Positions 1 to 2,211 of a DNA stretch of 64,000 nt are shown here, one piece after another. The notes under the pieces are model-generated. The model did no database searches and had not been told where the DNA came from. It saw nothing but the letters and a program-made list of their open reading frames with translations. Within the stretch, counting starts at the first letter, position 1, and each line of letters starts with the position of its first letter. Source of the stretch: Klebsiella phage phi1_146029. A program made the translations under genes and the position numbers. The stretch lies in sequence record PP889479.1; one strand, given 5' to 3'.

Positions 1-2211
1 ATGGCGTATCCGAAGCGTGAAGTGGAGATGGCACCTGAGAAAACAGGTTTCAAAATCCAAGACGTCAAATTGCGTATGGACCAAACGTTCATGCGCAAGC
101 CGACTGTGCGTGCTCCTCGTGTTGAATTAGTCCTTACTGATGAGCAGGAAGAAGAATATGTCAAGTGTGCTATGGACGCACACTACTTCGCTGCGAATTA
201 TTACAAGATCACCACGATTGACCATGGTTTCATCTTATTTGACATGCACGATTATCAGAAGCAATTGTTCCATGATTTCCAGGATCATCGATTCAATGCT
301 GTTGTGCAGGCTCGTCAGTCGGGTAAATGTGTTCGGGGCGACTCTGAAGTTTATGTTTACGATACTCTCAGCCAGGAAGAGTTCTCTATCACCATAGAGG
401 AGCTTCACAGCCGCTTCGAGGACGTTAACCATGCAGAGCCGTTGAATACCATTGGCAAACACAATAAGTTCGTAGATAGCCGCTTCGGCAAACGATACTT
501 TGTGAAGTCTGACAGTGGTTGGGTTCCTGTAATCGCAGCACACAAGACAAAAGAATATGCAGAATATGTGGTAAAAACTGAAAGTGGCCGGACGATTCAT
601 GTCGCGGACGAACATCTATTCTTTAATGAATACGACCGTGAAGTGTTCGCCAAAGATCTGGAAGCTGGGGATGCCATCATGACGCAAGATGGCCTTGAAT
701 GTATTTCTGAAATTTGGGAAACCGGCGAATCTCACCACATGTTTGACCTCCAGGTGAAATCATCTGAGCAGCGTTATTACACCAATGGGTTCCTGAGCCA
801 TAATACGACAGTGGTAGCGGCATTTCTCCTCTGGTACGCGATGTTCAACTCTGACAAAGAGATCGCGGTTCTTGCGAACAAAGAGAAACAGGCTATTGAA
901 ATCCTGGATCGTATTCGTAAAGCATATCAGGACATGCCATTCTTCGTCCAGCAAGGTTGTGAGAAATTTGGTTCAACTCTGATTGAATTCGAGAACGGTT
1001 CCAAGATATTTGCATACGCGACTTCCTCGGACTCTATCCGTGGTCGTTCTGTATCTCTACTGTATGTGGACGAAGTCGCATTCATCGAAAACGACTTTGA
1101 ATTCTGGGAATCAACTTTCCCTGCTATCGCCCAGGCAGAGACTTCGAAGTGTATCCTCACCAGTACACCAAAAGGCCAGCGCGGGCTATTTTATGACATC
1201 GTCACGAAGGCGAACCCAGAACATCCTCAATACAACGACTTCAATCTTACGGAAGTTCCTTGGTACAGGGTTCCGGCGTACACCAAAGACCCGAATTGGG
1301 AATCCAAACAACGTGCCAAACTTGGCGACGCTCGTTTCGATCAGGAATTCGGTATCAAGTTCCGTGGTTCTGTCGGTTCATTAATACCGTCGAAATGTCT
1401 GGACAAGATGACATCCAAGTTGTATCAGGAGCCGAATGAGTTCACCAAAATCTACAAACCCTTTGACAAAACCAGAACATATTTTGGTATTGCTGATACA
1501 GGCAAAGGGGTTGAGGGGGACTACTCTGTGCTGACCATATTGGACATCACGGAATATCCTCATACGATTGCAGCCAAATACCGGAACAACACGATACCGC
1601 CGATGATGTATGCATACACGATTGCCGATATGTGTACTCAATACGGTGAATGCCCTGTGCTTGTAGAGACTAACAATGATGTTGGTGGTCAGGTGATCAC
1701 GATCCTGTATCAAGAAATTGAATATCCGGAAATCGTGTTCACGTCAACAGATAATAAGGGAACCGGCAAGAAGATCGGTGGTCGTCGTCCTGAACCAGGG
1801 ATCAACACCAACAAGAAAGTTCGCTCTATCGGTTGTGCTAACCTGAAAGCACTTATCGAAAGAGAGATGTTGGTAATAGAAGACCAAGATACGATTGATG
1901 AACTGAGTACATTCGTGTTTACCGGGACCCGTTATGAGGCAGACGAGGGTTGCCATGATGACTGCGTTATGCCACTTGTTTTATATTCATGGGCCGTGAA
2001 ACAGGAATGGTTCAGTGATTTAACTGACACCAGTATTTCGAGAGATATGCGCGGTCGTATGAATGCAATGGAGCAACACCAAGTCCTCCCGTTTGGAGGC
2101 AAATTTACTGGTGATACCCCTCATGAAGTACAGCATATGCCGGGCTTTGGGGGTGTGAATGTATTTGATGAACGTTCTGGGATGTCAATGGAAGAGTGGT
2201 TCAAGAACTGA
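1..2211 (+). CDS. 17: Terminase large subunit (gp17-like) with an in-frame mini-intein. The 5' end is probably truncated by the window edge.
   Basis: Reading frame is open from position 1. The extein aligns with T4 gp17: 'DYQ(K/R)' motif; Walker A 'RQSGK|...|TTVVA' split by an insert; C-terminal nuclease region 'EEGYHDDLVM' equivalent to 'DEGCHDDCVM' here. About 55 aa of the T4 N-terminus lie upstream of the window. Extein about 577 aa plus the missing part matches T4's 610 aa. Confidence 0.9.
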   Translation: MAYPKREVEMAPEKTGFKIQDVKLRMDQTFMRKPTVRAPRVELVLTDEQEEEYVKCAMDAHYFAANYYKITTIDHGFILFDMHDYQKQLFHDFQDHRFNAVVQARQSGKCVRGDSEVYVYDTLSQEEFSITIEELHSRFEDVNHAEPLNTIGKHNKFVDSRFGKRYFVKSDSGWVPVIAAHKTKEYAEYVVKTESGRTIHVADEHLFFNEYDREVFAKDLEAGDAIMTQDGLECISEIWETGESHHMFDLQVKSSEQRYYTNGFLSHNTTVVAAFLLWYAMFNSDKEIAVLANKEKQAIEILDRIRKAYQDMPFFVQQGCEKFGSTLIEFENGSKIFAYATSSDSIRGRSVSLLYVDEVAFIENDFEFWESTFPAIAQAETSKCILTSTPKGQRGLFYDIVTKANPEHPQYNDFNLTEVPWYRVPAYTKDPNWESKQRAKLGDARFDQEFGIKFRGSVGSLIPSKCLDKMTSKLYQEPNEFTKIYKPFDKTRTYFGIADTGKGVEGDYSVLTILDITEYPHTIAAKYRNNTIPPMMYAYTIADMCTQYGECPVLVETNNDVGGQVITILYQEIEYPEIVFTSTDNKGTGKKIGGRRPEPGINTNKKVRSIGCANLKALIEREMLVIEDQDTIDELSTFVFTGTRYEADEGCHDDCVMPLVLYSWAVKQEWFSDLTDTSISRDMRGRMNAMEQHQVLPFGGKFTGDTPHEVQHMPGFGGVNVFDERSGMSMEEWFKN
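328..804 (+). mobile_element. Mini-intein (159 aa, Hint domain only, no homing-endonuclease domain) inserted in the terminase P-loop between GK and TT.
   Basis: Starts with Cys ('CVRGDSEVYVYD', block A). Block B-like 'SGRTIHVADEH'. C-terminal block F/G 'HMFDLQVKSSEQRYYTNGFLSHN' followed by Thr (+1 nucleophile). Removing it restores the Walker A GKTT. Confidence 0.85.

Follow-up and report, generated by a model that had tools for sequence, protein, structure and literature searches.

Inteins in the large terminase subunit (TerL) of phages of the family Ackermannviridae have been annotated before. The record of Salmonella phage Marshall (KF669653) describes an 'intein from Cys110 to Asn268' by means of mat_peptide features, and the corresponding 2013 paper is explicit on this point (PMC3853055); Klebsiella phage Magnus (MN045230, genus Taipeivirus, 2019) is annotated with the same mat_peptide features, and its paper reports an intein within the gene for the large terminase (PMC6763660); the paper on Salmonella phage Mooltan likewise mentions a terminase intein (PMC6486243). 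These calls are annotations made from InterPro domains, without structural, evolutionary, or experimental support. Here we analyze the equivalent element of Klebsiella phage phi1_146029 (PP889479.1), in which the TerL gene (terL) opens a window of 64,000 nucleotides, the whole stretch of DNA that was examined. Gene, insertion site, length (159 residues), and boundaries are the same in the window as in Marshall, Magnus, and Mooltan, and the window intein is 98.7% identical to that of Magnus, 100% identical to that of Menlow, and 84.3% identical to that of Marshall. It is, therefore, already known, having been annotated and published for near-identical phages, including members of the same genus. 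The inteins of Menlow, UPM 2146, and further members of Taipeivirus are 100% identical to it and unannotated. When the intein by itself was the query of a word-indexed protein search, just two proteins were retrieved, one of them the 159-residue 'intein' mat_peptide of Marshall/Maynard.

The insertion site is also a familiar one. In mycobacteriophage TerL1-a, an insertion between the invariant lysine and the nucleophilic threonine of Walker A was termed the 'classic' P-loop site (Kelley et al. 2016, PMC5050341), and Terminase_6 proteins are among the intein hosts listed by Novikova et al. (PMC4760082). The initial annotation of the window, made from its sequence, had described P-loops as a known intein hotspot, and the Lys|Thr site of the window is indeed this classic site. 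However, the TerL1-a hosts belong to the Terminase_1 family rather than to the Terminase_6/T4 gp17 family of the window protein, with no close sequence relationship detectable; and while the paper on the mycobacteriophage TerL inteins refers to efficient splicing (PMC5050341), splicing of the window intein is predicted. In this respect, it adds one case to the well-documented tendency of inteins to occupy phage terminase P-loops.

The terL gene of Klebsiella phage 0507-KN2-1 (Ackermannviridae, Taipeivirus) is 98.1% identical in DNA sequence to window positions 1-2211, and about 45 further Klebsiella and Escherichia Taipeivirus records are 96-98% identical to the same segment. The ATG of terL is the first codon of the window, and a single open reading frame (ORF) (1-2211, plus strand, 736 residues) encodes the TerL precursor. 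In a profile search with the whole protein, Terminase_6N (PF03237) matched with an E-value of 4.9e-17, the match being confined to residue 269 onward, and Terminase_6C (PF17289) scored 21.6 bits against a cut-off of 22.6. The C-extein contains the RNase H-like nuclease domain as well as the Walker B motif LLYVDE, whose Asp357-Glu358 are encoded at 1069-1074. Judged from these assignments, the window TerL is of the T4 gp17 type (Terminase_6), with a predicted N-terminal ATPase containing Walker A and B and a predicted C-terminal RNase H-like nuclease.

Direct reading of the codons places Lys109 (aaa, 325-327) immediately before Cys110, and Asn268 immediately before Thr269-Thr270 (acg aca, 805-810). 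The precursor around the insert reads ...ARQSGK|CVRGDSEV...(159 residues)...NGFLSHN|TTVVAAF..., and the first residue of the C-extein, Thr+1 (805-807), is the Walker A threonine. The initial annotation had proposed precisely this split (SGK|C...HN|TTVV, 159 residues, 328-804), which is exact to the codon; the motifs that it quoted (GDSEV, TIHVADEH, FDLQ...NGFLSHN, and Thr+1) are all found in the window sequence, and its figure of about 66 kDa for the extein agrees with the mass of 66.2 kDa that we calculate for spliced TerL (the precursor comes to 84.6 kDa and the intein to 18.5 kDa).

Related phages with an intact GKTT and no intein, for which the initial annotation had advised a search, were readily found. 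Erwinia phage Bue1 (Ackermannviridae, extein 77% identical) and Vibrio phage K353 (56%) read ARQSGKTTVVAAFLLWYA at this position, the alignment showing a clean 159-residue gap, and the window N-extein is collinear with their TerL proteins up to Lys109. Five metagenomic TerL proteins (P0015-P0019; 575-581 residues, 74-85% identity) have the same uninterrupted ARQSGKTTVVAAFLLWYA-type site. When the 577-residue extein was spliced computationally, it matched the T4 gp17 structures 3EZK and 3CPE with an E-value of 3e-77, and its P-loop aligned to gp17 without gaps (arqsgkttvvaafl to SRQLGKTTVVAIFL; gp17 reads SRQLGKTTVVA), the end of the N-extein corresponding to SRQLGK. A second, uninterrupted terL copy was also sought; all Ackermannviridae matches have one locus per record, so that there is no intein-free backup copy in these genomes.

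Profile searches and structure prediction identify the insert as a HINT domain. TIGR01445 (intein_Nterm) scored 27.6 bits on the isolated insert, above its curated cut-off of 24.5, and 22.9 bits on the whole protein. By sequence alone, the closest solved relative is the phage-derived gp41-1 mini-intein (E-value 0.0035 in a search of PDB sequences). AlphaFold2 (AF2), run on the intein aligned to 31 full-length homologs, gave a model with a mean predicted local distance difference test score (pLDDT) of 95.4 and a predicted template modeling score (pTM) of 0.87; an earlier run on a three-sequence alignment, with a pLDDT of 60, was discarded. The model consists of a single, mostly-beta HINT domain that extends over essentially all 159 residues, with two short helices at residues 23-43. 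A Foldseek comparison with the PDB placed solved inteins at all of ranks 1-41 (probability 1.00, template modeling score 0.6-0.8), including VidaL, Mtu RecA, Pho RadA, gp41-1, Npu/Ssp DnaB, and Mxe GyrA, while bacterial intein-like (BIL) and Hedgehog HINT domains first appear at rank 42. Like the window intein, VidaL (6VGV), gp41-1 (6QAZ), P. horikoshii RadA (4E2T), and Npu/Ssp DnaB (4O1R, 1MI8) are compact HINT-fold mini-inteins without an endonuclease, and their template modeling scores against the model are 0.65-0.83. However, these solved mini-inteins are only 13-23% identical to it and reside in different exteins, and the window intein differs from them in the extra short helical segment at residues 23-43, between blocks A and B.

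The catalytic residues are strongly conserved. Among 32 inteins at this TerL site, which are 30-84% identical to the window intein, C1, A93, D94, H96, D140, L156, S157, H158, and N159 are invariant, and Thr-Thr directly follows SHN in all alleles examined. Nei-Gojobori estimates for 10 Ackermannviridae terL genes gave ratios of nonsynonymous to synonymous substitution rates (dN/dS) of 0.02-0.18 for the inteins wherever dS was unsaturated (e.g., 0.019 for the window versus Magnus, 0.043 for AG3 versus XF4, and 0.066 for aagejoakim versus AV101) and of 0.01-0.12 for the exteins. The window intein is under purifying selection.

A tblastn search with the intein recovered 278 phage records at an intein coverage of at least 80%, with 67-100% identity. 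These records fall in the genera Kuttervirus, Agtrevirus, Limestonevirus, Miltonvirus, and Taipeivirus, and the insert is present in all Taipeivirus records. In a neighbor-joining tree of the exteins, constructed without bootstrap, the intein-less alleles (P0015; Bue1/P0016/P0017; P0018/P0019) are nested among lineages that contain the 159-residue intein. Such scattered intein-less alleles form the sporadic pattern to be expected of a selfish element, with putative precise loss or re-gain.

Because empty sites, fold, conservation of the catalytic residues, and selection agree as four independent lines, we consider it highly probable that 328-804 encodes a class-1 mini-intein and that the packaging ATPase is restored only through its splicing, which is predicted from sequence and model. 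The initial annotation had reached the intein reading from the primary sequence, and it holds: a HINT-fold insert lies exactly between the Walker A lysine and threonine of TerL, with the splicing residues present (Table 1).

Table 1. Features of the interrupted terL gene (window coordinates; intein residues counted from Cys1)
Feature	Position	Strand	Basis or remark
N-extein of TerL	1..327	+	Ends in first half of Walker A, ...ARQSGK; QSGK at nucleotides 316-327 (ORF list, sequence)
Predicted class-1 mini-intein, 159 residues, Cys110-Asn268 of precursor, 18.5 kDa	328..804	+	TIGR01445, PF14890, AF2, Foldseek, annotated relatives
Cys1 codon, block A nucleophile	328..330	+	tgt; invariant in 32 inteins at the same TerL site
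Block B core A-D-E-H, intein residues 93-96	604..615	+	gcg gac gaa cat; includes the conserved histidine of block B, His96
Block F aspartate, intein Asp140 in MFDLQV	745..747	+	gac; invariant in 32 sequences
Block G residues H158 (penultimate His) and N159 (terminal Asn) of intein	799..804	+	cat aat; L156, S157, H158, and N159 invariant
C-extein of TerL, residues 269-736 and stop codon	805..2211	+	Terminase_6N and Terminase_6C matches

Established knowledge of inteins and gp17 leads us to infer how the intein would splice and that packaging would depend on it. Translation would yield an 84.6 kDa precursor with an interrupted ATP-binding loop. At the bond that links Lys109 to Cys110 (Cys1 of the intein), the cysteine would then undergo an N-to-S acyl shift, aided by His96 of block B, and the hydroxyl of Thr269 (+1) would attack the resulting thioester to form a branched ester, aided by Asp140 of block F. 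Cyclization of Asn268, aided by the penultimate His267, would free the 18.5 kDa intein, and an O-to-N shift would complete the Lys109-Thr269 peptide bond. The expected end product is a 66.2 kDa TerL with a restored ARQSGKTTVV motif, which should be the sole form able to bind ATP and package DNA. Predicted peptide markers are YYTNGFLSHNTTVVAAFLLWYAMFNSDK for the precursor and, as the N-terminal tryptic peptide of spliced TerL, TTVVAAFLLWYAMFNSDK.

Several observations weigh against this reading. Pfam Intein_splicing (PF14890) matched the insert with an E-value of 2.4e-8, but its score of 34.3 bits is below the gathering cut-off of 35.8. The threonine of the canonical block B TxxH is Ala93 in the window intein, alanine being invariant among the 32 relatives; the block B histidine is more critical than this threonine. 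Threonine is, moreover, the rarer +1 nucleophile of inteins. We found no literature report of experimental splicing for the window intein or for any Ackermannviridae TerL intein, and the accessible part of a proteomics paper on Vi01-like phage gives four TerL peptide retrievals without splice information. Finally, the presumed need for an intact Walker A in gp17 function is taken over from the T4 literature.

Splicing might also be conditional, responding to redox state, temperature, or binding of DNA or a partner, in which case the intein would be a post-translational switch that times or limits the packaging ATPase. The intein is apparently fixed in the sampled members of all five genera (278 records) although it has no endonuclease, and it is under purifying selection; in addition, the Pyrococcus horikoshii RadA intein is documented as conditionally splicing (PMC5790916), and selective retention in P-loops has been argued by Novikova et al. 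(PMC4760082). However, any intein at an essential site is expected to be under purifying selection, and the sequence indicates no sensor. The sole second cysteine of the intein (in GLECIS) is phenylalanine in Marshall, which excludes a conserved disulfide trap, and the intein-less alleles inside the intein-bearing clade of the neighbor-joining tree argue that the intein is dispensable. We therefore regard a switch as very unlikely. That the 159 residues are instead a permanent domain of mature TerL, whether a degenerate, non-splicing HINT relic or a BIL domain, with an expanded P-loop that works, could draw on the lack of a reported splicing experiment, the Pfam score just under its cut-off, and the missing block B threonine, but is scarcely credible, given that none of the residues needed for the four splicing steps varies even among deeply diverged inteins, that the insert separates the lysine and threonine that together coordinate ATP and Mg, that the modeled HINT domain fills essentially the whole insert, that intein-less alleles are otherwise collinear, and that a conserved His-Asn together with a +1 nucleophile, within a catalytic motif that is itself conserved, is established as the pattern of an intein and not of a BIL domain.

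Two other assignments of the insert were considered and rejected from their motifs. BIL domains typically occur in variable regions of non-conserved proteins and lack a conserved +1 nucleophile, whereas the window insert interrupts an essential enzyme at its most conserved motif, with a conserved Thr+1 after it. A class 3 intein would lack Cys1 or Ser1 and would have the WCT triplet (Trp in block B, Cys in block F, Thr in block G), the block F cysteine being its internal nucleophile; here Cys1 is present, block F has aspartate, and block G is SHN.

The initial annotation had also noted the lack of a LAGLIDADG or HNH domain, in keeping with both the profile searches and the single HINT domain of the model. 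Pfam and TIGR profile searches matched no endonuclease family in the insert or in the whole TerL. A hidden endonuclease was sought in the alternative frames and the opposite strand of 328-804 and rejected, as the largest overlapping ORF (235-615, minus strand, 126 residues) has no Pfam match. The window intein has no endonuclease and cannot home by itself. We see it as a domesticated or stranded selfish element that would be retained by purifying selection, as failure to splice would kill the phage. With a GC fraction of 0.45-0.48 over the intein and its flanks, a comparison of the two gave no compositional sign of recent acquisition.

A free-standing GIY-YIG homing endonuclease gene (4228-4683, plus strand, 151 residues, PF01541, E-value 7e-10) is present in the window, 3.4 kb downstream of the intein. 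The gene that follows terL encodes the tail sheath (2231-4159, from the ORF list), and the GIY-YIG gene lies between it and the tail tube gene; it is annotated in 0507-KN2-1 as orf108. In Dickeya phage XF4 (Limestonevirus), a homing endonuclease, F-LimIX, with a NUMOD3 motif (L012:609-1487) is inserted after terS and before the intein-containing terL, whose start it overlaps.

Histories of intein and extein were compared by pairwise scans on 10 genomes, and these indicate that intein segments are exchanged between genera of the Ackermannviridae. Marshall (L007) and Salmonella phage aagejoakim (L014), both Kuttervirus, have exteins that are 99% identical and inteins that are 79% identical. Conversely, the inteins of aagejoakim and Escherichia phage AV101 (L015, Agtrevirus) are 96% identical, while their exteins are 88% identical. 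A likelihood scan of the latter pair delimited an exchanged tract of about 470 nucleotides (terL nucleotides ~259-724 in window numbering), with 4.1% divergence inside and 23.5% outside, which comprises the last ~70 nucleotides of the N-extein and the first ~400 nucleotides of the intein. For the window and Marshall, nucleotide identity is 76.1% in the intein and 78.5% in the extein, a difference that is not significant; the two histories are thus congruent for the window, with no sign of recent movement in this phage.

Outside the 159-residue group, other T4-like TerL P-loop alleles are 150-443 residues long. Vibrio phage VAP7 (179 residues), vB_VmeM-32, and the metagenomic alleles P0020-P0027, P0083-P0087, and P0080/P0085 have the same GK|C...SHN|TT junction as the window intein, and their C-terminal halves are homologous to it (...ADxH...MYDL...HRYYTNGILSHN). 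The large alleles contain an out-of-frame ORF for a putative DUF559/Vsr-like endonuclease, whereas the window has none. In the metagenomic alleles of 422-443 residues (P0080 on L018 and P0085 on L017), the extra length comes from a stretch that, when translated in frame, has an odd composition, and ORFs of 279-294 residues lie out of frame inside these inteins (L017:1865-2749, plus strand; L018:1871-2710, plus strand). The products of these two ORFs are 35% identical (E-value 8e-57), compared with 24% (E-value 4e-10) for the in-frame translations of the same DNA. They show weak matches to DUF559 and REase_MTES_1575 (Vsr-like PD-(D/E)XK nuclease) and to the ROS/MucR zinc finger, and are situated between the regions of blocks A and B, not in the usual B-F position.

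A tract has moved between Kuttervirus and Agtrevirus, intein-free alleles are scattered within the intein-bearing clade, and in other T4-like phages a putative Vsr-like endonuclease is encoded out of frame by large alleles at this site. The mini-intein might be mobilized in trans at co-infection, by a free-standing endonuclease or one from another allele (an intein counterpart of 'collaborative homing'), beyond ordinary homologous recombination. We consider such mobilization unlikely.

With regard to annotation, we propose that the product be labeled 'terminase large subunit precursor' and that both the intein (328-804) and spliced TerL receive mat_peptide features. Most Taipeivirus records lack such an annotation, and so does that of 0507-KN2-1, the closest one. 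When phylogenies are computed, primers designed, or structures modeled from terL, the 477-nucleotide insert should be left out, the more so as intein segments undergo recombination that is independent of the extein. A 159-residue Cys1/Thr+1 intein from a mesophilic enterobacterial phage is a candidate tool for protein engineering if it splices efficiently, and a fixed intein without an endonuclease would allow a direct test of its regulatory value for DNA packaging. What remains of interest is the splicing of this intein and the evolutionary dynamics of its family.

Further features were seen in other terL genes. In vB_VmeM-32 (L008:1102-3216), a second intein is located in Walker B (YVDE|C...ESHN|CAF), besides the one in the P-loop; the annotated coding sequence seems to start within the first intein, the genome having been linearized there. 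The terminase intein of Campylobacter phage CP220 (L010:78-2312) shares homology with the window intein over the C-terminal half of the latter, and its aligned junctions (PRQ|C...SHN|SSKSTT) may reflect an insertion register three residues upstream of GK|T or may be an alignment artifact. The TerL homologs P0052, P0077 (Vibrio phage VP-1), P0082, and P0116 have a GIY-YIG domain right after the ATPase, at about residues 494-590, and no Terminase_6C match, which suggests that these terL genes were split or fused by insertion of an endonuclease between the ATPase and nuclease domains. In the partial genome of Klebsiella phage KFM-TASP06 (L004, PV588648), the terL match is 320 nucleotides longer and in two pieces, with no terL coding sequence across them, probably owing to assembly or frameshift noise.

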